Virus record (IMG/VR): IMGVR_UViG_3300042465_005589
Location: 141,741-205,740 of that record
Source of the DNA: a virus
Reading direction: 5' to 3' (one strand)
Length of the DNA stretch: 64,000 nt
In this document: one piece after another, positions 772 through 14,054 of the stretch
Position numbering within the stretch: the stretch's first letter is position 1
How the letters are laid out: every line of letters starts with the position of its first letter
Translations under genes and position numbers: made by a program
The notes under the pieces: model-generated
What the model was told of the DNA's origin: nothing
Database searches by the model: none
Seen by the model: the letters and a program-made list of their open reading frames with translations, nothing else

Positions 772-2178
772 ATGAAAAATGCAATTAATTTATTAATGGA
801 AAAGTGGATTAAAGGTGTGGATACATATACCCACAATGGTTCTACTTGGTTAATATTTACCGATTCCAAAAAATGGGTAATTGAACTAACCGATTCTAAA
901 ACCCTATGGTATAACTACAACTTCTTCAAACAAATATTTGATTTCACTTCGTTGGATGTTGTGGAGAATCAATCATACATCACCAAATGGGTGGAAGATA
1001 ATATTATCAATGGGGTAAACCATACCGGAGCACCTGATTGGAATAGAGATAAGGTTGCCAAATATGCAATTGAAAATGGTGTGAAGAACACCAAACAATC
1101 ACATATAGATAACCGAATCCAAGAACGTGTTGAAGGTACCATTGAAAATGGGGTAAAGAAAACCAATTATAAATCTCTAGTGACAAGAGGTAATATTGAA
1201 GACATCATTGATGGCGGGGTTAAGGAAACTATTAGTACACTACGACGTACTCTTCTTGGGGTTGACGATATCATTCAAAATGGAATAAAAGAAACCCGTT
1301 TGGAAATGAACATTACTGAAGGAGAAGTTGATGACATCATTCAAGATGGGGTGAAACACACCTTTGGTGATAAGTGGCATAAGCATAATTTTGTTGAAGA
1401 CATAATTCAAAATGGTGTAAGAGATACACAGAGTAACCCGTATGAAAATACAAGTTGGATTGAAGGTGTTATTAAAAAAGGTGTAAAACTTACCGGACGC
1501 ATTCATAAAGATTATACTGAAGTTGTTGAATACCTTATTGAAAATGGTGTGAGGAAAACCTATCACGACACAGATAACTATACTGACGATGTGAAAGAAG
1601 TCATTAGAGAAGGTGTGAAAGAAACAAAGGAGATGTTGGATTGGGTTTGTACCGACCGAATGTTATCTAATGTTCTTGAAAATGGTGTGAGAACTTCCCA
1701 CCCACGTGCATATGTAGATGAAAAAATGATTGATAAGGTGATTGATAAGGGTGTAATAGAAACCCACGATGATGTATATCACCACAAAGGAAGAATTGAT
1801 GGTGTGATTAAGAATGGTATTAAAGAAACGTTGAAAGCATCATATCTTAATGTTGATGATGTAATTCAAGATGGTGTTAAAGAAACAAAAACACCCGGTG
1901 ATTGTGACCTTGTATCAACCATTGAATGGATGAATGAAAATAATACCAGTAATGTTCCCATAATGATTGATGATGTTATTGAGAATGGTGTTAAAGAAAC
2001 TGTGGCAGCCGGATGTGTTGACAAAAAGACGGGTATTTTTCATTATCGGATTCAAGAACAAGTTGATGATGTTGTTGACAATGGTGAAAAAGTTAACGGA
2101 ACTTACGCTGGCGGTCAACGTCAAAGTGAAAAATGTAAATCCGTTGTTGAATATGGAACAAAAAACCCCACCGATTAG
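772..2178 (+). CDS. Tandem-repeat protein with about 16 copies of a 22-24 aa unit (core [VI]xxIIxNGVKET). Possible surface or structural protein.
   Basis: Repeat units are visible in the translation (IENGVKNT, IENGVKKT, IIDGGVKET, IIQNGIKET, IIQDGVKHT, IIQNGVRDT, VIKKGVKLT, LIENGVRKT, VIREGVKET, VLENGVRTS, VIDKGVIET, VIKNGIKET, VIQDGVKET, VIENGVKET). A TATATTTG -7-like motif lies 6 nt upstream of the ATG. Confidence 0.7.
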   Translation: MKNAINLLMEKWIKGVDTYTHNGSTWLIFTDSKKWVIELTDSKTLWYNYNFFKQIFDFTSLDVVENQSYITKWVEDNIINGVNHTGAPDWNRDKVAKYAIENGVKNTKQSHIDNRIQERVEGTIENGVKKTNYKSLVTRGNIEDIIDGGVKETISTLRRTLLGVDDIIQNGIKETRLEMNITEGEVDDIIQDGVKHTFGDKWHKHNFVEDIIQNGVRDTQSNPYENTSWIEGVIKKGVKLTGRIHKDYTEVVEYLIENGVRKTYHDTDNYTDDVKEVIREGVKETKEMLDWVCTDRMLSNVLENGVRTSHPRAYVDEKMIDKVIDKGVIETHDDVYHHKGRIDGVIKNGIKETLKASYLNVDDVIQDGVKETKTPGDCDLVSTIEWMNENNTSNVPIMIDDVIENGVKETVAAGCVDKKTGIFHYRIQEQVDDVVDNGEKVNGTYAGGQRQSEKCKSVVEYGTKNPTD

Positions 2179-4582: not shown

Positions 4583-4900
4583 TTACACACATTCCTTATC
4601 GTAAATACCTTGTAGATAATCGGCAAAATTATCTACCATAAAATAATACAAAGTATCTTTGGTTTTAGAATCAATCTTTCCGCCGTTTTCATAATAGTAA
4701 TCATCAATTAAATCCAATACCAGCATATCACACATTTCACCAATAAAATCACCCAAACTTCCATAATCACAAGGATTATAATTCTGTATAACAAAATCTA
4801 AATGACCTTTAATTTCGTCATAATTAAACCTTCTACGAAGTGATGCCGGGATATTCTCCATTAACAAGTTATGCTGTCTTTCAGTGATTATAATTTTCAT
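4583..4900 (-). CDS. Hypothetical protein of the ITE N-terminal family (MKIIITERQHNLL...).
   Basis: Conserved N-terminal MKIIITE peptide. Its stop and the downstream start overlap as ATGA. Confidence 0.6.
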   Translation of the reverse strand: MKIIITERQHNLLMENIPASLRRRFNYDEIKGHLDFVIQNYNPCDYGSLGDFIGEMCDMLVLDLIDDYYYENGGKIDSKTKDTLYYFMVDNFADYLQGIYDKECV

Positions 4901-5259
4901 TCCTCAACAAATTCCTCAATTAATTTATTCAAACTTATTCCCAACATATCAAGACCAAGTATTTTTAAAAAATTATTTTCGCTAATTTTACGATTGTGAG
5001 ATTCACTTAAAACTAAGGTACCATATTCTTTACCTTGAGGGTGAAGATAATAATTATTTCCATTAACCTTAAACAAATACATTGGACCATAATTATTAAG
5101 TAACCACCTAAACTCATCTCTACCATCAGTAAACAAGTTTTGACCTTTAGGACCTAATTCAATCCAATTTGTAATTATTTCAATATTGTCGGATAAGTTA
5201 TAACCCAATATATTATTGATTAACCCTTTTAATCTGTTTTCTGTTATTATTATTTTCAT
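4897..5259 (-). CDS. Hypothetical protein of the ITE family and paralog of 10259..10633. Start moved to the internal MKIIITENRL.
   Basis: Track ORF 4897..5286. About 45% identity to 10259..10633 (NNILGYNLSDNIEIITNW vs NNTLGYDLSDTIEMITNYW; LGLDMLGISL...EEFVEE vs MGIDMFGIPL...DNFVKEE). Confidence 0.65.
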   Translation of the reverse strand: MKIIITENRLKGLINNILGYNLSDNIEIITNWIELGPKGQNLFTDGRDEFRWLLNNYGPMYLFKVNGNNYYLHPQGKEYGTLVLSESHNRKISENNFLKILGLDMLGISLNKLIEEFVEE

Positions 5260-5600
5260 AATTCTTCCTCCACTCTTTTCCACCACCAGGGGTTATCGTC
5301 TCTCGCCGAAACATTATTTGAATGTAAACCATATTCCTCCAATAACCATTTTTTTAATATTGTTTGAACATCAGAAAAATCTAATCCAAATATTTTGGTT
5401 AACCCACTCCATATATTAAACACATCAACATACACATTAGTGTTTGTTAAATGATAGTCAATCATTACCTTACCGTCTTTAACATAGAAAAGACGAGTTG
5501 GGTTGGATTCGCTTGTAACCGAAGGTAACCCTCCAAATTTATCGGTCAACCATTTTAGGACCAATCTATGTAATCTATCTTCAGTAATTATCATTCTCAT
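5256..5600 (-). CDS. Hypothetical protein of the ITE family (MRMIITEDRLHRLV...).
   Basis: 114-aa ORF with the conserved N-terminal peptide, tightly packed with its neighbours. Confidence 0.6.
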   Translation of the reverse strand: MRMIITEDRLHRLVLKWLTDKFGGLPSVTSESNPTRLFYVKDGKVMIDYHLTNTNVYVDVFNIWSGLTKIFGLDFSDVQTILKKWLLEEYGLHSNNVSARDDNPWWWKRVEEEL

Positions 5601-5601
5601 A

Positions 5602-5919
5602 TTAATTTAATCTTCTAGTAAAAAAAGTTGATTTTAATGCTGACGGTTCATTAAATTTAATTGAAACATATTCTTTACAGATATCCACCAAATCAGGTAT
5701 AGACATCCCTAACATATTTTTAGCGGTATAAAAATCATCGTAGTCAAATCGTATTGATTCTTGTTTGGTATCATATTCAAAAGCGGTACGACCATTATCA
5801 TCCATATATTCATATAGAACGTGAGGATACCCCATACGTATCGGTCGTCTCCCGTGTTTCTCATAACCCCTAAAGGTCATATCAAAATATTTAAAGATGA
5901 GTTCTTTCTTTCTGTTCAT
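5602..5919 (-). CDS. Hypothetical protein.
   Basis: 105-aa ORF spaced 2 nt from the upstream gene. Confidence 0.55.
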   Translation of the reverse strand: MNRKKELIFKYFDMTFRGYEKHGRRPIRMGYPHVLYEYMDDNGRTAFEYDTKQESIRFDYDDFYTAKNMLGMSIPDLVDICKEYVSIKFNEPSALKSTFFTRRLN

Positions 5920-5930
5920 AATTAACTACT

Positions 5931-6335
5931 CTAATTTAATCCGGAACAACGTCCACCTTTACACGGGGACTTAGGACCATTATCTCCAGCCCAAAAAGTT
6001 CTTTCTCCTTTAGGTTCAGGATTTTCAGCAGCGTTCTTTTTTGTTCTATCATCAAATTCTTTATACCATTGGTCAAAAGTTTGTCCGGGTTTTTTATACT
6101 TTTCGTAAGATTTTGTCCAAACAAGTTTATTTCGTTCTTTCTTTAAAGAATCTTTAATAGCAAATGCTTTAGCCCGTTCTTGACGTAGAGCCTCCGCTTT
6201 TTCTTTATTAAGTTCAATTTGTTTTAATCTTTGTTGTTGAGGTGTTAAAACGGTAGTTGTCCCCCCACTAGTTACCGGAGGAGTGGTTTGTTCAATCAAA
6301 AAATTATACTGTGATTCTGTAATTAATATCTTCAT
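5931..6335 (-). CDS. Hypothetical Lys-rich protein of the ITE family (MKILITESQYNFLIEQ...).
   Basis: 134-aa ORF with the conserved N-terminus and a basic, coiled-coil-like middle region. Confidence 0.55.
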   Translation of the reverse strand: MKILITESQYNFLIEQTTPPVTSGGTTTVLTPQQQRLKQIELNKEKAEALRQERAKAFAIKDSLKKERNKLVWTKSYEKYKKPGQTFDQWYKEFDDRTKKNAAENPEPKGERTFWAGDNGPKSPCKGGRCSGLN

Positions 6336-6347
6336 ACAAATAAATAT

Positions 6348-6373
6348 CCCCCAACACCGAAATAAAAGGGGGG
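6348..6373 (-). terminator. Hairpin (CCCCC...GGGGGG) downstream of the stop of gene 6379..7416.
   Basis: GC stem in an AT-rich context, with the TTAA/T-rich flank seen in the rest of this terminator family. Confidence 0.4.
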
Positions 6374-6378
6374 TTAAA

Positions 6379-7416
6379 TTAATCTACGTTAGTTATTTCG
6401 GTGGGGTGCTCTGTAAATACAGCAGAATTAAAACTGTGGGTATAATTTTTATTATCAAATTCCAACATTTTATTTGGATTAACAAATAATATTTTATCAA
6501 CCAATGATTTTCCCTTATAATCTCTCATACCATAAGTTTTAATGAAAAAAGGACCTTCTTTTTTACCGGCATACGAGACCAATGGTTTAATTTGATAGTT
6601 TATACCATCAATAGTAGCATCAACCCCTTCATATCTATCCATTATAGAACCCGATGGATAAAATGTAGTATTACTACCTTTTTTTAATATTTTAGCCAAT
6701 TCTTCACTTTTATATCCATTCTCAATGGATTGCCATTGACGTTCAACTAAAGGTTCAATAAAAGATGGATTATCTCTAAGTTCATTAGCCAACCAATTAA
6801 CAATATCCAAATCACTGTCCGATTTAGAGTATCTTTTGTTTATCAGTTCCTGAATTTCTTTTTTGGTATCAAAATAATTTAAAATAGACCAATCATCTTC
6901 ATTACCCAATTTTTCACCAATGGTATAGACACCTCTCACACCAGCAGAAAATATGTTATCTTGATAGTTCCATTTACCCGGACCATCATTATCCGGTGGG
7001 AACGCCAATTCCAAAGCCTTACGAATTTGATAAGATGTTATCTCCTGTTTAATATTGGTTTTAGAATCATCAAGTAAATTGAATAATATGTTATAGTATT
7101 TCCTATCCTTATAATATAATTCATCACTAAAAATAAATGGAACTCCTCCCTTATATCTAATATCATTTTTATCCAATTCAAATACCCCGTTAGGACCTCT
7201 AAAGATTACAAATTGAGGTTCGTTTGGTTTTTTATAATCCGATTTTCCAAATTCAGTACCATTAAAAAATGCAATAAATTTTTTAGGGTATTTTTTATCA
7301 GGAACAACACCGATTGATTTATACTCATATTCAGGATTCTCATCCGAATAATCAAACGCACGATTAACCTCACTAACTAATACTTTATATTGTCGTTCTT
7401 TTATTAATATATTCAT
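6379..7416 (-). CDS. Hypothetical protein (345 aa) with an ITE-like N-terminus (MNILIKERQYKVLV).
   Basis: Long ORF. A hairpin terminator (6348-6373) follows its stop and an intergenic repeat copy lies upstream. Confidence 0.65.
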   Translation of the reverse strand: MNILIKERQYKVLVSEVNRAFDYSDENPEYEYKSIGVVPDKKYPKKFIAFFNGTEFGKSDYKKPNEPQFVIFRGPNGVFELDKNDIRYKGGVPFIFSDELYYKDRKYYNILFNLLDDSKTNIKQEITSYQIRKALELAFPPDNDGPGKWNYQDNIFSAGVRGVYTIGEKLGNEDDWSILNYFDTKKEIQELINKRYSKSDSDLDIVNWLANELRDNPSFIEPLVERQWQSIENGYKSEELAKILKKGSNTTFYPSGSIMDRYEGVDATIDGINYQIKPLVSYAGKKEGPFFIKTYGMRDYKGKSLVDKILFVNPNKMLEFDNKNYTHSFNSAVFTEHPTEITNVD

Positions 7417-7437
7417 AATAATAAATATCTATGTTTT

Positions 7438-7508
7438 CAAAAAAAGGGGCGGGGGGATTTTAATTCGACCGGAGGAAGATTGGGTGGGGAATAACGTTAC
7501 CACCAACC
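7438..7508. repeat. Intergenic repeat copy A (AAAAAAAGGGGCGGGGGGATTTTAATTCGACCGGAGGAAGATTGGGTGGGG...).
   Basis: It shares the AAAAAAGGGGGCGGGGGGATT head with copies B and C. It sits directly upstream, on the coding strand, of gene 6379..7416. Confidence 0.55.
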
Positions 7509-7627
7509 TTTAAATTTTCCATTTAAGAAAACTGTACCCACAATGGGTATTAATATTCGTAGAACTAATAGACCCAAACATATAAAACCTATGGTCTCCA
7601 AAAAATTATATTTCCAAATTATCTCCA

Positions 7628-8458
7628 TTACTTATTTAAATATTCTTTATACTCTTTCTCTAACACTTCTCTACTATCCGTTAAATAATCATTTTTAGAT
7701 AACCAATCAAATAACCACCTTGTTTGGTAATGAAATACATTATTATAAACTTTCTCTTCTCTAATTCTAAATCTCTCATTACTCTCCTCAACAAACTTAC
7801 TTGGTTCCTTAGATACAATCTTTTCCAACTTCTCACTAAGGGTTTCTACTTTACCAAAATATTTCTTTGGAACCATAAGTGGTCTAACTATTTCGTCCTT
7901 AACCTCAATACCCACCTTAGTTATGTACCCATAATCAACTCCAGTACAGTCATTACAATTTTCACACTGAAAACTACATTGTTCTCCGTAGTCAACCTCA
8001 TCACCACAATAGAAATTCTTTATTGGAAGAATGATTTTGTAAAATGAAGATTCATAAAATTCCATTGCCCCATCATAATGACCTCCTGTTCTATATATCT
8101 CAACTTCCTCACATCTTTGATTCTTCACAAACCACTTAAGGAACTCATCACTAATTTCCTGAACACCATCTTTTTGAAGGTCTAAGTCTGTTGTTAATAT
8201 CACTTTGTTTTTAAAATTACCTTCATCTCTTGGTCTTGCTTGAAACACACTTCCTTCATATACATAATAGTCTTTATCATATACGCCTTCTTCATCATTA
8301 GTGATGTACAAATTATGTGTAGATTTAATGTCTGTATGATACTTTGGAAACTCACATAGTTGATATGTTCTTTCTTGGCTATTGTAATATAGCCTACTTG
8401 TGTGTTCCGTTGGTAATACGTGTATGTTTTTCATTTTATTTCTTTTTAAATTGTTCAA
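7628..8458 (-). CDS. Hypothetical protein with a Cys-rich C-terminus, tandem paralog of 8436..9116.
   Basis: It shares a roughly 110-aa N-terminal domain (YDKDYYVYEGSVFQARPRDEGNFKNKVILTTD...) at about 85% identity with the neighbouring gene. The DNA blocks 8187-8299 and 8861-8973 are nearly identical. Confidence 0.65.
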   Translation of the reverse strand: MNNLKRNKMKNIHVLPTEHTSRLYYNSQERTYQLCEFPKYHTDIKSTHNLYITNDEEGVYDKDYYVYEGSVFQARPRDEGNFKNKVILTTDLDLQKDGVQEISDEFLKWFVKNQRCEEVEIYRTGGHYDGAMEFYESSFYKIILPIKNFYCGDEVDYGEQCSFQCENCNDCTGVDYGYITKVGIEVKDEIVRPLMVPKKYFGKVETLSEKLEKIVSKEPSKFVEESNERFRIREEKVYNNVFHYQTRWLFDWLSKNDYLTDSREVLEKEYKEYLNK

Positions 8459-9116
8459 ACCATCCTAATTTAACAGTATCTTTATGTTTTTGTTCAAAGT
8501 AAGTACAGTGCTTTTCAACTATCTCATTAATCATCACTATAACTTCTTCCTCACTATAACTTCTTTTTTGTTGCCATTTAGCACCAAATTTCATAGCTCC
8601 TAATACAAATCCTTTAGTAAGTTGTCCACAAAAATTAGTTTCCATAAATTTTTCAAAAGCTTCTTCAAGTGTTTCTTTAGATTCTTGTTTTGGTTCATCA
8701 GCAAAGTACATTCTTCTAATATGATATTTCCCAAATGTATATTTTCCGTTTATAAAATCTCCTTCTACTATTTCAACTTCCTCACAACTTGGATTCTTTA
8801 CAAAAAATTGTAAAAACTCATCATCAATCTTTTGCACACCATCTTTGATTAAGTCTTGGTCTGTTGTTAATATCACTTTGTTTTTAAAATTACCTTCATC
8901 TCTTGGTCTTGCTTGAAACACACTTCCTTCATATAGATAATAGTCTTTATCATATATACCTTCTTCATCAGATGTTATATACACATACTCGTGGGAACAC
9001 TTGGTACATTCGTTACTATTGGAATGGGATAAATTATCAAACCTCAATTTATTGGAATCCAAATCTCTCCACAATCTACTCTCCTTATCGGTGGGAATTA
9101 AAAATATGTTTTTCAT
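8436..9116 (-). CDS. Hypothetical protein, tandem paralog of 7628..8458 with a divergent C-terminal half.
   Basis: Conserved N-terminal domain. The promoter motif TATCTTTGT lies 13 nt upstream. Confidence 0.65.
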   Translation of the reverse strand: MKNIFLIPTDKESRLWRDLDSNKLRFDNLSHSNSNECTKCSHEYVYITSDEEGIYDKDYYLYEGSVFQARPRDEGNFKNKVILTTDQDLIKDGVQKIDDEFLQFFVKNPSCEEVEIVEGDFINGKYTFGKYHIRRMYFADEPKQESKETLEEAFEKFMETNFCGQLTKGFVLGAMKFGAKWQQKRSYSEEEVIVMINEIVEKHCTYFEQKHKDTVKLGWFEQFKKK

Positions 9117-9128
9117 AAATTATTTTTT

Positions 9129-9152
9129 TACAAAGATAACATTATTTTCCAA
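9129..9152 (-). promoter_or_regulatory. Conserved upstream motif copy (plus strand reads TACAAAGATAACATTATTTT).
   Basis: 13 nt upstream of the start of gene 8436..9116. Confidence 0.45.
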
Positions 9153-9639
9153 ACAATTCAAAAAATTTATCCTTATTTGTTTTCTCGGGTGGAAAAATAA
9201 ATGATTGAACGTGAAAGGTTATATAATCCATATCACTATAGGTCATCTTAAAATAATCATCAATCTCCTTACCGTATTCATTCTTACTTTTCTTCATACC
9301 ATTATGATTATTAAAATAGATATCAATACCAACCAAATACTTATATATCGGATTAAATGTCATAGGGTCATACACAGTTTGTTCTCTATAACCAACTGAA
9401 ACAACATCGTTAATCTCGGGACATAACTTCAAGATAACATCCTTGAATGTTTCGGGGATTGAAATCACCTTATTATCAGGAGACCCGTTGAGGTCAGGTT
9501 CAACACCTTTTTGTAATTCTCGTATAGGTTCATAATAATCCCGATAACATCCAGCAGGTCCGGTATCTATAATCCTATATGCCCCGTTTTCGTCTTCGTT
9601 TTCCATAATAACAATTAGAACATTTCTTTTACTGCACAA
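9142..9639 (-). CDS. Hypothetical protein.
   Basis: 165-aa ORF. Confidence 0.55.
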   Translation of the reverse strand: MCSKRNVLIVIMENEDENGAYRIIDTGPAGCYRDYYEPIRELQKGVEPDLNGSPDNKVISIPETFKDVILKLCPEINDVVSVGYREQTVYDPMTFNPIYKYLVGIDIYFNNHNGMKKSKNEYGKEIDDYFKMTYSDMDYITFHVQSFIFPPEKTNKDKFFELFGK

Positions 9640-9911
9640 ATATCTTGTGTTTCGTTTGTGATTTTATCTCTACGAATATCCATTTCGTTAAGTTGTTCGG
9701 CTAATGAGGCATAACCATATTCATCATTGGTCGGTTTCATTTCCCAAGCATTTACTTCAACATAATTAATAGCTTCCTCTTGAGTCATACCATCTAATTC
9801 CGGATAATCAGAAAGGGTTAATTCTACCGGTTGTTTAGTGATTGATGTTTCATAATATTCTCTTGAGAATACTGCAATTGTTTTTGGGGTTTGTTCTGTT
9901 TGTTCTGACAT
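9615..9911 (-). CDS. Hypothetical acidic protein.
   Basis: 98-aa ORF that overlaps the downstream gene by 25 nt. Confidence 0.5.
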   Translation of the reverse strand: MSEQTEQTPKTIAVFSREYYETSITKQPVELTLSDYPELDGMTQEEAINYVEVNAWEMKPTNDEYGYASLAEQLNEMDIRRDKITNETQDICAVKEMF

Positions 9912-9940
9912 GATATATAATTTTAGATAAAGATATAAAT

Positions 9941-9965
9941 AAAAAACCCCACAATCAAGTGGGGG
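9941..9965 (-). terminator. Intrinsic terminator. The minus strand reads CCCCCACTTGATTGTGGGG followed by TTTTTT.
   Basis: 6-bp GC stem plus a T run, directly after the stop of 9966..10256. Confidence 0.6.
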
Positions 9966-10256
9966 TTAATAAAGTTCCTGGTAATTACGATAATAATCAA
10001 TCCTATTACCAAAATTTTTTCTAATTAAATCAGTTACATAAACTTTCTGTCCTAATGTTAAATCCTGTCTATCCGTTAAGTCGGAAATAACACGACGAAC
10101 AACCTCATCAAAATAATCATCACGATAATAAAATCTGGATACAATTGTAGGTTCACCCATAGAAACCAAATACTTGTCAACAAGTTTTCTGATAAGGTCA
10201 ATTCTTCTCTTAAACCATATGTTATTAAATTGATTCTCTGTAATTATTATTTTCAT
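9966..10256 (-). CDS. Hypothetical protein of the ITE family (MKIIITENQFNNIW...).
   Basis: Conserved N-terminus. An intrinsic terminator follows the stop at 9941-9965. Confidence 0.6.
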   Translation of the reverse strand: MKIIITENQFNNIWFKRRIDLIRKLVDKYLVSMGEPTIVSRFYYRDDYFDEVVRRVISDLTDRQDLTLGQKVYVTDLIRKNFGNRIDYYRNYQELY

Positions 10257-10258
10257 AT

Positions 10259-10633
10259 CTATTCTTCTTTTACAAAATTATCAATAATAGTGCTAAGAGG
10301 AATTCCAAACATATCAATACCCATATAAGATAATAGTCGATGTTCATCAATACGTTCAACATATTCGGGTTTATAACCACCTTCATAAATAAACCATTCA
10401 CGACCTTCACGTTGTTGAGCCAACCACTTGCCATTTCCGGGTGTCTTAATCCAAAACATAGGTCCCCAATGATTTAATAGTGTATTAAATTCTCCTTTAC
10501 TCTCAAACATACGACGTATAAGAACATTAGCTTCCCAATAATTTGTAATCATTTCAATCGTATCCGACAAGTCATACCCCAATGTGTTGTTGACCATATT
10601 CATCAACTTACTTTCTGCAATAATAATTCTCAT
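10259..10633 (-). CDS. Hypothetical protein of the ITE family (MRIIIAESKLMNMV...), paralog of 4897..5259.
   Basis: See 4897..5259. Repeat copy B sits directly upstream. Confidence 0.65.
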   Translation of the reverse strand: MRIIIAESKLMNMVNNTLGYDLSDTIEMITNYWEANVLIRRMFESKGEFNTLLNHWGPMFWIKTPGNGKWLAQQREGREWFIYEGGYKPEYVERIDEHRLLSYMGIDMFGIPLSTIIDNFVKEE

Positions 10634-10656
10634 AATGATAAATATACATCATTCCA

Positions 10657-10704
10657 AAAAAAGGGGGCGGGGGGATTTGAGAACGACCGAAGGGAGTCCG
10701 GGTT
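10657..10704. repeat. Intergenic repeat copy B (AAAAAAAGGGGGCGGGGGGATTTGAGAACGACCGAAGGGAGTCCGGGTTATC).
   Basis: It shares an identical 19-nt core, GACCGAAGGGAGTCCGGGT, with copy C. It sits directly upstream of 10259..10633 and overlaps the stop of 10703..11302. Confidence 0.6.
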
Positions 10705-11302
10705 ATCTTTCATTATAAAAATCATCTAAAAATATTTCCAAAGAAGTTTTAGTATTATTTCTCATCATACTAAGTTTTATTAATCTATTGTAATCATCAC
10801 TCCCCTTAACAAATGTTTTAGAAAGACCAACTTGGGTATTACCCTCATTTGACTTTTTTGTCCCATTTTGATATGTTAAATTAAACTCTTTCACAAATGA
10901 ATATAATGGAATACAGTAGTATTCCGTATTAAAATTATCTAAAGCGTCTACGAAGGTAATTAATAAAAAATCAAAATGTTGATAAGGTCTAATATTCTTA
11001 ACATTAAACTTCTTATTTACACTTATTGATAATTTATTTTCAAAAACAATATTCTCTTTAGTTTTTTTGGTTCTAAGAAAAAAATCACCATACCCTAATG
11101 ATGCGGGAATAGGATACAAATACTTAAAATGATATAATAATTTATCCGTCCATTTATTACCATAAGACTGTGAATTACAATACAAGTAACAATTAATAAA
11201 AAATCTAATCCAATCCCCTTTGAATACAATATCTGAAATTACATTATGACTAACTAATTTCTTATTAGCTAATACCAATTCTTTTAATACGTTTTTTCTC
11301 AT
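10703..11302 (-). CDS. Hypothetical protein, weak candidate for a PD-(D/E)xK-type nuclease. The gene is bracketed by repeat copies B and C.
   Basis: The track ORF starts at a TTG (11308) and the first ATG is at 11300-11302. A possible D...(IVF)ENK motif (GYGDFFL ... IVFENKL) is the only functional hint. Confidence 0.5.
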   Translation of the reverse strand: MRKNVLKELVLANKKLVSHNVISDIVFKGDWIRFFINCYLYCNSQSYGNKWTDKLLYHFKYLYPIPASLGYGDFFLRTKKTKENIVFENKLSISVNKKFNVKNIRPYQHFDFLLITFVDALDNFNTEYYCIPLYSFVKEFNLTYQNGTKKSNEGNTQVGLSKTFVKGSDDYNRLIKLSMMRNNTKTSLEIFLDDFYNER

Positions 11303-11317
11303 TATCAATTTATTTTT

Positions 11318-11345
11318 GACAAAGATATAAATAATATTTTAATTA
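11318..11345 (-). promoter_or_regulatory. Conserved upstream motif copy (GACAAAGATATAAATAATATTTT).
   Basis: About 15 nt upstream of the start of 10703..11302. Confidence 0.45.
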
Positions 11346-11353
11346 TCCAAACA

Positions 11354-11430
11354 AAAAAGGGGGCGGGGGGATTGAACCCGACCGAAGGGAGTCCGGGTCC
11401 ACAGAGGTCCGTCATTCCCGACCCCAACCG
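11354..11430. repeat. Intergenic repeat copy C, the longest (AAAAAAGGGGGCGGGGGGATTGAACCCGACCGAAGGGAGTCCGGGTCCACAGAGGTCCGTCATTCCCGACCCCAACC).
   Basis: It sits upstream of 10703..11302 and overlaps the 3' end of 11412..11819. Confidence 0.6.
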
Positions 11431-11819
11431 TAATGAATAATCTTACCATTCACGTATTCCTTCCAAGTTTTATTCCAACGTCCCGAGAACAATACCGTCA
11501 TACATCCGGAACTATTAGATATCCGATGATAGGAATCACGGGGGAAATAAACCAACACCTTCTCACGTCTAGCAATACGATATTCCCCACTAATCTCATC
11601 ATCCAAGATGTGCTCGTCATACCCCCCAAACAGTTTCACAGACCACGCGTTAAAAGCGTGGGTATGAAACCTATCCTGACTACCAAAGGATTTATGAAAA
11701 TAAAAGAAGATGATGGAGAATAGCCACTTACATTCAAAGACCACGAATTGACTAACGATTTGTTCCCCAAACTCAAACCTGTTGTATTTGAGAAATGAAA
11801 TTGATTTTGTTTTTACCAT
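11412..11819 (-). CDS. Hypothetical protein, locally higher in GC. Its C-terminal codons overlap repeat copy C.
   Basis: 135 aa, preferred over the antisense ORF 11433..11723 because it is longer and matches the strand of its neighbours. Identity unknown. Confidence 0.4.
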   Translation of the reverse strand: MVKTKSISFLKYNRFEFGEQIVSQFVVFECKWLFSIIFFYFHKSFGSQDRFHTHAFNAWSVKLFGGYDEHILDDEISGEYRIARREKVLVYFPRDSYHRISNSSGCMTVLFSGRWNKTWKEYVNGKIIHYGWGRE

Positions 11820-11890
11820 AATTGTTATATACCTTATGGAATTAAATGATAATCAATTATATTCCGGATGTCAACCAATCAAAGCGGGGG

Positions 11891-13153
11891 TTAATGTCTA
11901 TTCCCTTGACTCTTGTTATCAGAACTCTCCTGTAACACCAAGTTATCATACGTACTATCACCACCTTTAGAATGTGGTTTATCCTTATGACCCCCATTTA
12001 TAACCTTACCGTTCTTAACCTGAAGGGGGGTGTAAATCTCAACACTACCATCCAACCTCGTAACAACACCTCCGGTCTCAATACACTTAGCCAACTTCTC
12101 CATCTCAGTGAACAATCTCTTAGAATCCAACTCATAGAAGTATTCCCCAATAAACGGGTGGAAATCATTATACATACACTCAAACTTATATTTCAAATTC
12201 TTAGTCATAGAACGACATAGATATGTCCAATTACTATTCATAGGATTCTTAAAGGTATCAATTATCCTCTGATTGTCCAATTCCAAATACTTATCAACAA
12301 ACTCAGATATCAAATCCTTATTCAATACACAGTTGTATTCACGACTCATATCCAATAAGAACATAAACAAATTAAATGAATTACCCTTAGTAATATCCGA
12401 TTTAGTTTCGTGTATCAAATTAATACACTTACCCCATACCTTCATAATGTCATTGAAATTCTTCTCATTGAATATTTCAACATTCTTATACATCAAATCC
12501 AAATTAGTAGTGTTCAATGTCTTGTCCTTTGATTGGTGATAAGATAAAAACTGACTAACCAATTCCAAATCTTTCATCCTTGAAAAGGTCAACCCACTTA
12601 TCTTTAATAACTCCCCACTATAATCAATACCGTTCTTACGAATAAACTCAGAAATAATCCCCTCCTCAGCATTCCTTCTCTCTTGGGGATTAGCAGATGT
12701 ATTACTGTTCAAATTAATGAAGGTTCTATGTAATTGATTCTTCGTAGCATTGAAAATATACTTTAAACTAATCTCACTATTGAAGAAGTCAAACATCATA
12801 TCACTCAATGGGGAATTCCAATCAATCTCATTATACTTCTCAATCAAAAACTCAGTCCTGTTCCCCCCATCTATTGAAATGTAACGATACCCCTGATTCC
12901 ATAAACTTGAAAAATATTCATAGTCCTTCGTATTATTCTGACTAAAGGAATATTCCATTGAAGACTTAATGTCACACAATACAATGTTACTCGCATCTGT
13001 ACCATCTAACAATGATAAATGATAACTAACCTTGTCGGTTTTCTTCCACACTTTTCTTCTTTGAATAGTTGGGTCATAATATACCCTATTCCCCTTAACA
13101 ATGTGAATGAACCCCTGAATTGTTTTTGACTCGTACTTCTTAATGATTCCCAT
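11891..13153 (-). CDS. Candidate GmrSD-like type IV (modification-dependent) restriction protein, with an N-terminal DUF262 (ParB-like) region and a C-terminal DUF1524 (HNH-like) region.
   Basis: DUF262-like motifs YYDPTIQRRKVW and ISIDGGNRTEF (compare xPxYQRxYxW ... IDGQQR). C-terminal GGHKDKPHSKGGDSTYDNLVLQESSDNKSQGN resembles the DUF1524 H..P...GG...NL.L...N..KGN signature. Promoter motif lies 27 nt upstream. Confidence 0.55.
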   Translation of the reverse strand: MGIIKKYESKTIQGFIHIVKGNRVYYDPTIQRRKVWKKTDKVSYHLSLLDGTDASNIVLCDIKSSMEYSFSQNNTKDYEYFSSLWNQGYRYISIDGGNRTEFLIEKYNEIDWNSPLSDMMFDFFNSEISLKYIFNATKNQLHRTFINLNSNTSANPQERRNAEEGIISEFIRKNGIDYSGELLKISGLTFSRMKDLELVSQFLSYHQSKDKTLNTTNLDLMYKNVEIFNEKNFNDIMKVWGKCINLIHETKSDITKGNSFNLFMFLLDMSREYNCVLNKDLISEFVDKYLELDNQRIIDTFKNPMNSNWTYLCRSMTKNLKYKFECMYNDFHPFIGEYFYELDSKRLFTEMEKLAKCIETGGVVTRLDGSVEIYTPLQVKNGKVINGGHKDKPHSKGGDSTYDNLVLQESSDNKSQGNRH

Positions 13154-13179
13154 AACGTTTATGTTTTAAAGTTTAACGG

Positions 13180-13207
13180 GACAAAGATAATACTTTTTTT
13201 TTAATAA
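13180..13207 (-). promoter_or_regulatory. Conserved upstream motif copy (GACAAAGATAATACTTTTTTTTTTAATA).
   Basis: 27 nt upstream of the GmrSD-like gene start. Confidence 0.5.
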
Positions 13208-13426
13208 CCAAATTTTTTCCAGAATTTTTTTTTTCATATCTCATATTCCAATATACGATATGACCCCATCCGGAAATTTTCCGGATTACTAATCATTATT
13301 TCCGGATACCCAATTAACAGGGGGGATTTTCCCCAATTTTTTTCCAAAAATTTTTTAAGGTTTTTTTTCTCGAATACTTTGTTTAAGGGATTATCCCCCC
13401 TATTTGACTGTCAATATGTCATATAT

Positions 13427-13475
13427 GGAGGGGGGATACGGGGGAGGGAGGGGGTATGCCCCCACATAGGGGGTA
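13427..13475 (+). other. G-quadruplex-forming motif (G6-ATAC-G5-A-G3-A-G5) that overlaps mutually exclusive GC hairpins (GGGGGTATGCCCCC and CCCCCACATAGGGGG).
   Basis: GGAGGGGGGATACGGGGGAGGGAGGGGGTATGCCCCCACATAGGGGG, set in a genome of about 30% GC. Confidence 0.6.
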
Positions 13476-13531
13476 AGATGGGAGGAGTTATCATAAGTTA
13501 TGAACACTCCCTCCGGTATGATGTTAATAAG

Positions 13532-13972
13532 TTATTGCATTATGTAATGGTCACGACGTATTCGTCTTGGTACATTAACTATCTCCCCTCTGAAGTTTTC
13601 GTAAGGGTAATTGATTTGGAATTCTTCCGGTAGTTGTTCATTGACATCAGTCATTAGACGTTCCATGTTATCTGTTGTATCATATGATAGGTCTTTAAGT
13701 TGGGGGTTGTCATCGTAACTGAATAGACCACCCAATGTATATGTTTCATATGGACCTTGTGTATCAAGATGTTCTACCCAATGTTTATTGGTTTCAATAC
13801 CAAAGAAGTTAGCTAACATCTTATAGTCCACCATGAAGTCAATGTTTAACATGGTATCATACTTAAGGAAGTCATTAGATGGTTTCCATCCTAAGATGAA
13901 AGGGTATTTCTTTTTGATAGCGTTGACCATCATGTCCACACTTCTCATTTGTTTTTTAGTTAATTGTTCCAT
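13532..13972 (-). CDS. Hypothetical protein inside the low-coding region.
   Basis: 146-aa ORF with protein-like composition. Confidence 0.5.
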   Translation of the reverse strand: MEQLTKKQMRSVDMMVNAIKKKYPFILGWKPSNDFLKYDTMLNIDFMVDYKMLANFFGIETNKHWVEHLDTQGPYETYTLGGLFSYDDNPQLKDLSYDTTDNMERLMTDVNEQLPEEFQINYPYENFRGEIVNVPRRIRRDHYIMQ

Positions 13973-14054
13973 ATGTTAATAAATATAATGAAATTTGTTT
14001 GTGGATACAAATCTTTTTTGTATCTTTGTACCACAGAATCGGTAATCAGTCCGG

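Follow-up and report, generated by a model that had tools for sequence, protein, structure and literature searches.

The window, i.e., the whole 64-kb stretch of viral DNA analyzed here, carries on its minus strand a single open reading frame (ORF) flanked by two direct copies, B and C, of a 46-nt intergenic repeat referred to as R (Table 1). The ORF encodes a protein of 199 aa from the ATG at 11302, or of 201 aa from an upstream TTG, and is preceded by a promoter-like site, TTTG-N20-TATCTTTG, the end of which lies 17 nt upstream of the ATG. The original prediction had described a 200-aa gene with a possible D...ENK motif, bracketed by direct repeats and followed by a GC-richer ORF and a GmrSD-like gene. 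The bracketing is confirmed, the two copies being 43/47 identical; the length is adjusted as given above, and the motif is real, with D73, E88, and K90 as its residues.

Table 1. Positions of genes and elements at the locus.
Feature	Position	Strand	Remarks
Cassette ORF, predicted PD-(D/E)xK fold nuclease	10703..11302	-	D73, E88, K90; 24.3% GC
Promoter-like site of the cassette	11320..11351	-	TTTGGATAATTAAAATATTATTTATATCTTTG (TTTG, N20, TAnnTTTG)
R copy C	11353..11398	-	sequence-only R model 56.3 bits, E 1.4e-16
R copy B	10658..10703	-	sequence-only R model 57.5 bits, E 5.8e-17
R copy A	7440..7485	-	sequence-only R model 45 bits, E 4.7e-13
Partial R-type element (family D5)	6340..6375	-	C-run, TTTTATTTCGGTGTT, GGGGG hairpin
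Leader of the next gene (124 aa, MRIIIAES...)	10631..10645	-	ATATTTAT-N4-ATG
135-aa neighbor, cupin-like	11412..11819	-	PHROG 4786, 'cysteine dioxygenase'
420-aa gene	11891..13153	-	homologs with HNH nuclease domain; own promoter 13182-13212

Genes of the Locus and a Predicted Phage Nuclease Family

The GC content of the cassette ORF (24.3%) is the fourth lowest among 82 ORFs, compared with 31.4 ± 3.5%, and the gene is compositionally foreign. The motif TTTG/TAnnTTTG, which we take to be the −33/−7 promoter type of Bacteroidota, occurs 20 times in the window versus 4.8 expected, and the promoter block of the cassette is kept before the homologous gene in related contigs (L220/L221 and L217). 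The leader of the 124-aa gene lies directly 3′ of R copy B, where the TTTG/TAnnTTTG promoter is absent; leaders of this form precede at least 11 genes of the window. On the opposite side of the cassette, the 135-aa gene is conserved and anchors the variable slot, and its GC content of 40.0%, the highest of the 82 ORFs, agrees with its original description. The 420-aa gene is missing or replaced in related lineages. The HNH part of its GmrSD-like assignment stood, as homologs of the protein contain the Pfam HNH domains PF01844 or PF13395, whereas no DUF262 was found in the protein or its homologs in Pfam, PADLOC, NCBIfam, or a PDB sequence search. A DGGNR motif is visible in the 420-aa protein by sequence alone.

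The cassette protein matched nothing in Pfam, PHROGs, PADLOC, or NCBIfam, and sequence and profile searches against PDB chains yielded nothing meaningful. Close relatives of the protein were not found in a search of IMG/VR, tblastn of the protein and of a 358-aa homolog against GenBank phages gave no matches, and positions 6000–14000 of the window have no close DNA match in GenBank phages. A very confident structure model indicates a restriction-endonuclease-like α/β core fold, in which D73 is located just before one strand (74–77) and E88 and K90 within another (84–94), in agreement with catalytic D...(D/E)xK residues on the second and third core strands of the superfamily. E88 is found in every one of 86 aligned family members with 22–32% identity, and D73 and K90 in at least 90% each. 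On the basis of the model and these residues, the protein is a predicted PD-(D/E)xK nuclease. Clustered at 50% identity, the family comprises approximately 140 representatives; all of the distant homologs examined (141/141) are without a Pfam family, and those on long contigs reside in phage-like contexts with no adjacent methyltransferase. The contigs of the distant homologs P0007 and P0011 are too short for an informative context. The cassette locus defines a phage-borne family of predicted PD-(D/E)xK nucleases without a Pfam family.

Two groups of characterized nucleases are of use for comparison. NhoI and Eco15I (PDB 8q5n and 8q5m) are modification-dependent restriction endonucleases of the BisI family (PMC11347163); they share 15–17% identity with the cassette protein, which has an extra N-terminal four-helix part. 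Furthermore, the cassette protein gives no indication of depending on methylation or of being specific for GCNGC, and it is phage-borne rather than located in a host defense locus. The PD-(D/E)xK homing endonuclease I-Ssp6803I (PDB 2ost) is intron-encoded, whereas the cassette gene is free-standing, and at approximately 12% identity the fold is common to both but family membership is not.

The R Element

The window contains three copies of R, all within 4 kb. With up to three mismatches, the core 15-mer is found three times versus 0.26 expected, a number that 0 of 100 shuffles reach. A sequence-only model, made from 45 family copies and run on the 64-kb window, retrieves exactly copies A, B, and C, the best remaining match having an E-value of 0.29. 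All three copies are intergenic minus-strand elements that directly follow a minus-strand stop codon: copy B overlaps the cassette ORF, starting inside its TAA stop, and has T7 at its end, and copy C, the minus-strand sequence of which is ACCCGGACTCCCTTCGGTCGGGTTCAATCCCCCCGCCCCCTTTTTT, lies 13 nt past the TGA stop of the 135-aa gene. Copy A is the upstream boundary of a second single-gene indel, a 345-aa gene (6379–7416), and the partial R-type element is its downstream boundary. R is confined to the variable region of the window, and ordinary hairpin terminators are found elsewhere.

Carriers of R are AT-rich, mostly jumbo phage contigs, in which 45 distinct copies were found, nearly all between co-oriented genes; exact-core copies number 2–4 per related contig of 200–300 kb. 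IMG/VR contigs of this phage group span 175–309 kb, and contigs with the exact cassette protein span 0.2–1 Mb, the source metagenomes including JGI 3300042483, ENA ERZ27272089, and the GROS21 and BUCK21 samples. Exact 15-mer scans of IMG/VR returned mostly unrelated phages of high GC content and genuine 3′ ends of tRNAs, and the matches were filtered by GC content and by the presence of the R 5′ part. A co-oriented stop codon lies at most 80 nt upstream in 40 of the 45 copies, and a co-oriented ATG-ORF at most 130 nt downstream in 38. The copy is followed by TTTG-N17–22-TAnnTTTG in 10 cases, including copy C, and by RTATTTAT-N2–8-ATG in 12, including copies B and A, so that approximately half of the 45 have neither a host-type promoter nor an RTATTTAT leader after them. 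The subtypes of R are mostly lineage-specific, which fits homogenization between copies. In L220/L221, the two copies that flank the cassette belong to different subtypes, and the pair is therefore no simple duplication; in L220, tandem R copies are interrupted by a scaffold gap of Ns.

Briefly, the 5′ part of R is short and can form a hairpin, and a C-run and a T-run, both at one end, make the element asymmetric. Its folding energy is no better than that of shuffles (z +0.3 to +0.65). Only short hairpins of 5–8 bp are possible; the 5-bp stem can be drawn in two registers, approximately 81% of cells pair, and neither register exhibits covariation. A canonical intrinsic (Rho-independent) terminator was considered and rejected, since the hairpin does not adjoin the T-run and the terminator scan is negative: the hairpin-capable part is located approximately 20 nt upstream of the T-run with an unpaired AAT-C-run between them, and the scan left R uncalled, though it called ordinary terminators such as that at 9947–9964. 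The T-run and the position after a stop codon fit a gene-end signal. Base pairing between the C-run and the G-rich last codons of the 135-aa gene was likewise rejected, since it is available to copy C only and copy B has no partner; these codons encode a conserved GWG(R/K)E C-terminus, also where R is absent. R is an intergenic boundary element that is rare, oriented, and conserved in sequence.

The Locus in Related Phages

The gene content between the conserved 146-aa (13532–13972) and 165-aa (9142–9639) genes differs in every related lineage examined, in agreement with the exchange hotspot of the original prediction. The repeat-bounded variation anticipated for relatives was also found, i.e., the R-promoter-ORF-R arrangement recurs, its neighbors differ, and homology stops at the repeats. 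In L220/L221, the homolog of the cassette protein is 90% identical, and homology to the window extends over 11399..10656, from copy C to copy B (85% over 755 nt); in L221, positions 1031..1776 are aligned to this interval and the flanks are unrelated. The left neighbor in these two contigs is a 374-aa gene with a hairpin terminator, and the right neighbor is a homolog of the window gene 9142–9639. In L216–219, with a 75% identical protein, promoter-ORF-R lies upstream of the 135-aa gene, which is a third context; cassette proteins of 75–100% identity are accordingly found in three contexts. The R-promoter-ORF-R block is the unit in which the nuclease module travels.

The slot after the 135-aa gene, the protein of which is 83–92% identical in the relatives compared, is occupied in different ways. 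In L178–181 it is empty, the 135-aa gene being followed by an R variant and then by the promoter of the 9142 homolog, and these contigs have TnpB upstream of the 135-aa gene, at the position of the HNH gene of the window. The slot is filled by the gene for the 358-aa homolog of the cassette protein (27% identical) in L175–177 and by a T5orf172/MUG113 nuclease gene in L182. In both cases the slot gene is terminated by an ordinary hairpin terminator and not by R, and the idea of the repeat pair as a conserved frame of the slot does not hold. Regarding the 345-aa gene, which lies between copy A and the partial element in the window, L005 has one uninterrupted element; furthermore, copy B is 100% identical to an L005 copy over 45–48 nt, with a different gene context in L005. 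R elements mark the borders of differences between related phages that consist in the presence, absence, or replacement of one gene or a pair of genes. No cassette-less variant was found among 18 contigs with the exact 124-aa protein and 13 with the exact 135-aa protein; the cassette is in place in all of them, and the population thus gives no hint that excision is ongoing. The cargo of the slot and region (PD-(D/E)xK, HNH, T5orf172, and TnpB) looks like selfish or competition nucleases, and PADLOC gave no matches; the defense or counter-defense role originally suggested for the cargo is not supported.

Module Shuffling, Homing, and Other Readings

We favor, with moderate confidence, the explanation that the locus holds a self-contained one-gene nuclease module in a hyperplastic region, the modules of which are shuffled at R elements of terminator-like/promoter character. 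The genome is that of a large, AT-rich, uncultured phage with Bacteroidota-type promoters, probably a jumbo phage. The module would consist of a host-type promoter, the 199-aa PD-(D/E)xK endonuclease gene, and R at the 3′ end, the upstream R copy being its counterpart for the preceding gene. R may function as a terminator or attenuator and, together with the subsequent promoter or leader, could form a composite terminator/promoter linker. Copies of approximately 45–60 bp would then serve as portable homology, through which recombination inserts, deletes, or swaps modules, and the nuclease would be of a selfish or competition type, akin to free-standing homing endonucleases, rather than a housekeeping enzyme. 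No R–R recombination event has been directly observed, which counts against this explanation; further points against it are that the cassette is in place in all contigs with the exact flanking proteins, that R is no canonical terminator, that the flanking subtypes differ in L220/L221, and that the filled slots of L175–177 and L182 are without R. It is also conceivable, albeit doubtful, that the nuclease cuts competing or co-infecting genomes at R elements or beside them, with the R copies of approximately 50 bp on both sides of the gene as homology arms. If so, the module could home into any R-marked intergenic site, beyond the allelic one, and such an integrase-free 'cassette homing' would drag neighboring cargo and shape the hyperplastic regions of jumbo phages.

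In a possible, although rather unlikely, alternative, the cassette gene would encode a homing endonuclease of the free-standing kind and would spread through repair of the double-strand breaks that the enzyme makes ('intronless homing'). R would have no causal role in this mobility, being neutral intergenic DNA or, possibly, the cleavage target. The sporadic distribution, with three different contexts in close relatives, argues for it, as do the intergenic insertion, the promoter of its own, the low GC content, the unrelated T5orf172 gene in the same slot of another lineage, and the HNH and TnpB genes nearby. The 141 distant homologs without a Pfam family, phage-like and with no adjacent methyltransferase where the contigs are long, point in the same direction, and T4 provides a reviewed precedent (PMC2988022). 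However, neither a target site nor a co-conversion tract has been identified, and homing alone leaves unexplained both the presence of R around non-nuclease genes (the 345-aa gene and small MKIIITE-type genes) and the exact ending of homology blocks at R. Homing and module shuffling are mutually compatible and not exclusive. It seems improbable that the flanking repeats are simply the same gene-end signal of two adjacent transcription units, with a variability unrelated to R that arises via illegitimate recombination or other means. Every R lies directly past a stop codon and has a T-run at its end, the slots of L175–177 and L182 are filled without a downstream R, and the arrangement is stable in all near-identical contigs; these points speak for this reading. 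Nevertheless, R is rare (three copies among approximately 80–100 genes) and restricted to the variable region, with hairpin terminators elsewhere, and is hence not the ordinary terminator after most genes that the original prediction had named as its own refutation; independent comparisons show homology blocks stopping at R, the split element around the 345-aa gene is one uninterrupted element in L005, and R subtypes are lineage-specific.

Two further readings carry far less weight. It is very unlikely that R works independently of gene boundaries, as a structured RNA, a relic of a tRNA, or a G-quadruplex-forming DNA. In favor of this reading, the 3′ part of R (GGGTTCAATCCCCCCGCCCCC) is similar to the tRNA T-arm and acceptor end in the unrelated matches L022 and L105, and four G3+ tracts can be read from the letters on the template strand of the main subtype. 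However, ARAGORN finds no tRNA at R, Rfam has no match at the gathering score or at E up to 5, covariation is absent with positive folding z-scores, and the GGAATCCCAGCCC subtype has neither the G-tract pattern nor the T-arm-like stretch. Integron cassettes are promoterless, are transcribed from a common Pc promoter, and are exchanged by the tyrosine recombinase IntI, encoded next to the array, at attI/attC sites, attC being an imperfect palindrome that folds into a hairpin and has a conserved core where the crossover takes place. An integron-like cassette had been originally suggested; in such a system, a site-specific recombinase would exchange promoterless cassettes on attC-like repeats. 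The superficial picture agrees with it, as a single ORF lies between repeated sites in direct orientation and the gene content varies at one locus. By contrast, no Pfam recombinase match was found in ten ORFs scanned from 6379 to 13972, the other ORFs within approximately 5 kb (at most 152 aa) are too small for an integrase, and larger ORFs tested elsewhere in the window are also without a recombinase match. R lacks an attC-like imperfect palindrome, a significant fold, and covariation, and its copies are oriented direct repeats that terminate in a T-run; the cassette has a putative promoter of its own and no attI or Pc, and the copies flanking it in L220/L221 differ in subtype. Without an integrase or attC and with a putative promoter in the cassette, the integron-like reading is rejected as extremely improbable.

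Among known genetic modules, morons of lambdoid phages are autonomous promoter-gene-terminator units between conserved genes, usually expressed from the prophage and beneficial to the lysogen. The cassette resembles them as a one-gene unit with its own promoter, a 3′ gene-end element, and atypical GC content, located between conserved neighbors and missing in relatives; it differs in that there is no hint of lysogeny here and that a repeated boundary element is outside the moron concept. The likeness to free-standing homing endonucleases such as seg and mob of T4 (PMC2988022) comprises a small intergenic nuclease gene with its own promoter, a patchy presence among close relatives, an atypical composition, and HNH and GIY-YIG-like T5orf172 nucleases in the same neighborhood. 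Three contexts, an empty slot in L178–181, and unrelated slot nucleases all attest to sporadic intergenic presence; however, the free-standing endonucleases of T4 are GIY-YIG or HNH enzymes, whereas the cassette protein is a predicted PD-(D/E)xK nuclease.

To our knowledge, T4-type phages are the main group in which the repeat-mediated shuffling of small accessory gene modules has been characterized. In the related phages compared here, genes are gained, lost, and swapped at R much as in T4 relatives and unlike in integrons. The locus exhibits the same logic in unrelated, uncultured, AT-rich, mostly jumbo phages with Bacteroidota-type promoters, which use a different, unusually well conserved boundary element without an Rfam match and in which members of the nuclease family share a hotspot with HNH, T5orf172, and TnpB nuclease genes. 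The locus offers handles on the turnover of jumbo-phage accessory regions, on the spread of selfish nucleases between non-allelic sites, and on the gene-end and gene-start signals of R-carrying phages. The closest counterpart is the promoter-early stem-loop (PeSL), a regulatory cassette of T4-type phages, for which homologous recombination between copies has been proposed as the shuffling mechanism (Arbiol et al., 2010, PMC2839356; Comeau et al., 2014, PMC4122927). Both are short repeated intergenic motifs of hyperplastic regions, located between one stop codon and the next start and at indel or replacement borders between close relatives, and both often lie beside genes without known homologs, the genes neighboring R copies having no Pfam or PHROG matches. 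PeSL combines a terminator-like part with a host-type early promoter, and R may do likewise. Here, three R copies lie within 4 kb in a region that differs in gene content in every relative, and R is found at the breakpoints of the L221 alignment, the 345-aa indel of L005, and the empty site of L178. R is nonetheless distinct and much more sequence-conserved, and its carriers are another group of phages with TTTG/TAnnTTTG instead of sigma-70 −35/−10 promoters. PeSL forms a stable polyG/polyC stem-loop, whereas R has a C-run and T-run apart from a weak hairpin, and a host-type promoter comes after only approximately one-fifth of R copies and an ATATTTAT-N4-ATG leader after approximately one-quarter. 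Mini-circles and deletions are the expected recombination products of PeSL-type elements; no deletion variant appeared among the contigs with the exact flanking proteins. Approximately 50 PeSL copies are present per genome, compared with two to four exact-core R copies per related contig.

The R element at gene boundaries

Self-contained genes come, go, and replace one another in the hyperplastic stretch around the cassette (ORF 10703-11302, encoding a 199-aa protein), with copies of R, a 46-nt intergenic repeat, at the module borders. The window has a GC content of 31.2%, nearly all genes near the cassette lie on the minus strand, and R reads ACCCGGACTCCCTTCGGTCG-N3-5-(T)TCAAATCCCCCCGCCCCC-T6-7 in the direction of transcription. 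The ORF is indeed bracketed by direct repeats, as originally noted, far beyond chance: copies B and C show 43/47 identity, and the core 15-mer (≤3 mismatches) occurs three times against 0.26 expected, a count reached in none of 100 shuffles. When a sequence-only model with 45 family members as input was run on the 64 kb, exactly copies A, B, and C were matched (E 6e-17 to 5e-13; runner-up, E 0.29).

These 45 distinct copies were gathered by pattern scans of IMG/VR, where R is present in many AT-rich viral contigs (28-34% GC), several of 175-309 kb. A co-oriented ORF stops ≤80 nt upstream of R in 40 of the 45 copies, and a co-oriented ATG-ORF begins ≤130 nt downstream in 38; therefore, R is an oriented boundary element between a gene end and a gene start. 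R is followed by TTTG-N17-22-TAnnTTTG, which we take to be the Bacteroidota -33/-7 promoter type, in 10/45 copies (20 such motifs in the window vs 4.8 expected), and by RTATTTAT-N2-8-ATG in 12/45. In some copies, the C-run at the end pairs with GGGGG further downstream (C-run-TTTTATTTCGGNGTT-GGGGG; one example is window 6340-6375), and many copies lie directly downstream of an ordinary hairpin terminator. R is conserved chiefly in sequence, and its subtypes for the most part follow lineage (CCCCCCGCCCCC in the window, L005, and L008; GGAATCCCAGCCC in L178, L182, L202, and L216, all L-numbers denoting related viral contigs), a pattern compatible with homogenisation between copies or with a recognition factor that co-evolves with R.

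Coordinates of features in the window and, where named, in related contigs
Feature	Position	Strand	Remarks
R copy C	11353-11398	minus	13 nt past stop of 135-aa gene 11412-11819
R copy B	10658-10703	minus	starts inside TAA stop of ORF 10703-11302
R copy A	7440-7485	minus	third copy
Cassette promoter	11320-11351	minus	TTTGGATAATTAAAATATTATTTATATCTTTG; between copy C and ATG; full member of window promoter class
420-aa gene promoter	13182-13212		own promoter of gene 11891-13153
TnpB	L178-L181 4043-5374 (L180 3750-5081)		just upstream of 135-aa gene
T5orf172/MUG113 (GIY-YIG-like) protein	L182 3979-4836		Myb-like N-terminus; slot after 135-aa gene
RTATTTAT sites	e.g. 2663, 6347, 7428, 10645, 18142, 21335, 24059, 35443, 52419	minus	
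RTATTTAT sites	e.g. 2712, 36296	plus	
M(K/R)(I/L)IITE(S/N)(Q/K/R) genes	4897-5286, 5256-5600, 5931-6335, 6379-7416, 9966-10256, 10259-10633	minus	

Exchange of genes among related loci

The comparison with related loci, the check originally suggested, revealed an arrangement that varies among distant relatives and is constant at the strain level. All contigs with the exact cassette protein or exact flanking proteins share the arrangement of the window; thus, the locus is stable at the strain level.

Gene orders in the direction of transcription (13532 and 9142, flanking genes named by window start coordinate; percentages, identity to the window)
Locus	Order
Window	13532, 420-aa HNH-type, 135 aa, R, promoter, 199 aa, R, 124 aa, 96 aa, terminator, 98 aa, 9142
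L220/L221 (protein 90%)	13532, 374 aa, hairpin terminator, R, promoter, 199 aa, R, 9142
L216-219 (protein 75%)	151 aa, terminator, promoter, 199 aa, R variant, 147 aa, 221 aa, 135 aa, 577 aa ... 9142
L175-177 (135-aa gene 92%)	135 aa, R, promoter, 358-aa protein, ordinary hairpin terminator, 141 aa, 9142, R
L178-181 (135-aa gene 89%)	135 aa, R variant, promoter, 9142 (empty site)
L182 (135-aa gene 88%)	135 aa, R variant, 285-aa T5orf172/MUG113 protein, hairpin terminator, 9142
L183	135 aa, 9142, without R

In nucleotide sequence, L220/L221 are homologous to the window exactly from copy C to copy B (11399 to 10656; 85% over 755 nt), and both flanks beyond this block are unrelated. The 358-aa protein of L175-177 is 27% identical to the cassette protein in its N-terminal part. 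Upstream of the 135-aa gene, L178-181 carry TnpB (OrfB_IS605 and Cas12f1-like TNB), whereas the window has the 420-aa gene there. A second single-gene indel with R-type sequence on both sides is the 345-aa gene 6379-7416 (window 6340-7485; L005 3200-3420). In L005, one uninterrupted element, comprising the R 5′ part, a C-run, a hairpin variant, and a ATATTTAT leader, precedes the homologue of 5931-6335; in the window, such an element is split around the 345-aa gene, with copy A on one side, the C-run/hairpin variant (6340-6375) on the other, and a C-run at both ends of the gene. The proposed exchange hotspot is thus borne out by modules in different contexts, empty and alternatively filled slots, and homology blocks ending at R. 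The swapped genes are strikingly often nuclease genes, from four different families.

Separately, L182 and L178-181 carry different selfish nuclease families in one neighbourhood, and downstream of the L220 cassette (5650-5690), two tandem R copies are separated by an N run (scaffold gap), which hints at an ambiguous assembly or a heterogeneous population at R.

The cassette nuclease and known systems

Owing to the promoter-class site between copy C and its ATG, the cassette ORF is predicted to be its own transcription unit. Only three of the 82 ORFs (mean 31.4, sd 3.5) have a lower GC content than its 24.3%, and that of the upstream 135-aa gene (40.0%) is the highest. The cassette protein has no match in Pfam, PHROGs, PADLOC, NCBIfam, or PDB sequences; its close clusters number only five (70-90% identity), and a profile search of 1.84 billion representatives yielded 141 distant relatives (22-32% identity), all of them lacking a Pfam family. 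E88 is invariant in an 86-sequence alignment, where G48, G72, D73, K90, R105, and N155 are ≥90% conserved, so that the suspected PD-(D/E)xK-like D...ENK motif is recovered as a D...ExK signature (D73, E88, K90). The comparison list of the protein contains NhoI (9.9; BisI family, PMC11347163), the homing endonuclease I-Ssp6803I (8.5), ThaI (8.1), NaeI (7.8), the Eco15I N-terminal domain (7.5), RecU (7.2), Hjc (6.7), and EcoRV (6.5). The PD-(D/E)xK fold and the conserved triad and active site are established, and nuclease activity is predicted. Distant homologues on long contigs (244-284 kb) have phage-like surroundings without adjacent methyltransferases.

R is not a canonical intrinsic terminator because its hairpin-capable part lies ~20 nt from the T-run, and R was left uncalled by a terminator scan, although ordinary terminators, e.g., 9947-9964, were called. 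Nor is it an ordinary terminator placed after most genes, since three copies face ~80-100 window genes. Predicted R folds were no better than those of shuffles, two alternative 5-bp hairpin registers were each ~81% paired without covariation, Rfam gave no R match at the gathering score or at E up to 5, and a tRNA search at R found none. The term "integron-like" does not apply, every defining feature tested having failed: no integrase-sized ORF within 5 kb has a recombinase domain, an attC-like site is absent, and the cassette is not promoterless. Defence or counter-defence cargo found no backing, PADLOC being without matches.

The closest described system is the promoter-early stem-loop (PeSL) of T4-type phages, a composite terminator/promoter motif concentrated in hyperplastic regions, where recombination between PeSLs is considered the source of indels and replacements and yields mini-circles (PMC2839356, PMC4122927). 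R resembles PeSL in placement and relation to breakpoints; however, it is not a family member because its sequence, promoter type, weak hairpin, copy number, and phage group differ. The cassette gene in turn matches what is expected of a free-standing homing endonuclease, with precedents in T4 reviewed in PMC2988022, in its intergenic insertion, own promoter, patchy distribution, and foreign composition, and its product has a nuclease fold in common with I-Ssp6803I. The two readings are mutually compatible. R would terminate or attenuate transcription, homologous recombination between R copies would be the exchange mechanism, and the nuclease may be selfish or homing-like. The locus is real, is more than a plain terminator pair, and is a variant of known phage genome plasticity, not a new category.

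The 420-aa gene and other elements of the window

The 420-aa gene is absent from all related loci compared, and its product has no family match in Pfam, PADLOC, or NCBIfam. Its description as GmrSD-like is supported for the HNH part only, HNH being the only precomputed Pfam domains of its homologues (PF01844, PF13395), but DUF262 was not found among them. Upstream lies a 380-nt gene-free stretch (13154-13531, minus-strand reading) of locally high GC and positive GC skew, which may be a non-coding RNA or regulatory region; its conserved C-rich element (...CCCCCTATGTGGGGGCATACCCCCTCCCTCCCCCGTATCCCCCCTCC...) recurs at L175 4672, L216 4791, L005 8582, L081 577, and L163 1949. Just upstream of the 420-aa gene promoter, a perfect palindrome TCCGGAAAATTTCCGGA and an extra ATCCGGAAAT copy (~13265-13310) are a candidate operator for a phage regulator; ATCCGGAAAT also lies within the promoter that precedes the L217 homologue of the cassette (7960-7990).

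The octamer RTATTTAT, a leader placed exactly 4 nt ahead of the ATG of at least 11 window genes on both strands and often directly past a terminator or R element, is a candidate phage-specific promoter with near-leaderless transcripts or a translation-start signal. Many otherwise dissimilar small proteins share the start M(K/R)(I/L)IITE(S/N)(Q/K/R), which is also seen in many genes of L005, L176, L178, L183, and L184; the likeness is also found in the nucleotides spanning start codon and leader (repeat families D5, D10, D12, D14), and this protein start could serve as a common N-terminal signal or represent a recombination linker of a second type. The adjacent paralogous genes 7628-8458 and 8436-9116 (276 and 226 aa) have a common 218-nt stretch of 85% identity (D2), and their gene calls differ among near-identical contigs (182+227 aa vs 226+268 aa), thereby pointing to local rearrangement or assembly variation. 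Furthermore, a 66-nt (22-aa) unit is repeated in tandem ~11 times (D1, D4, D6, D11) within gene 772-2178 (plus strand), which weakly matches DUF445; in several relatives, homologues of this gene occur close to the variable slot, in one orientation or the other.
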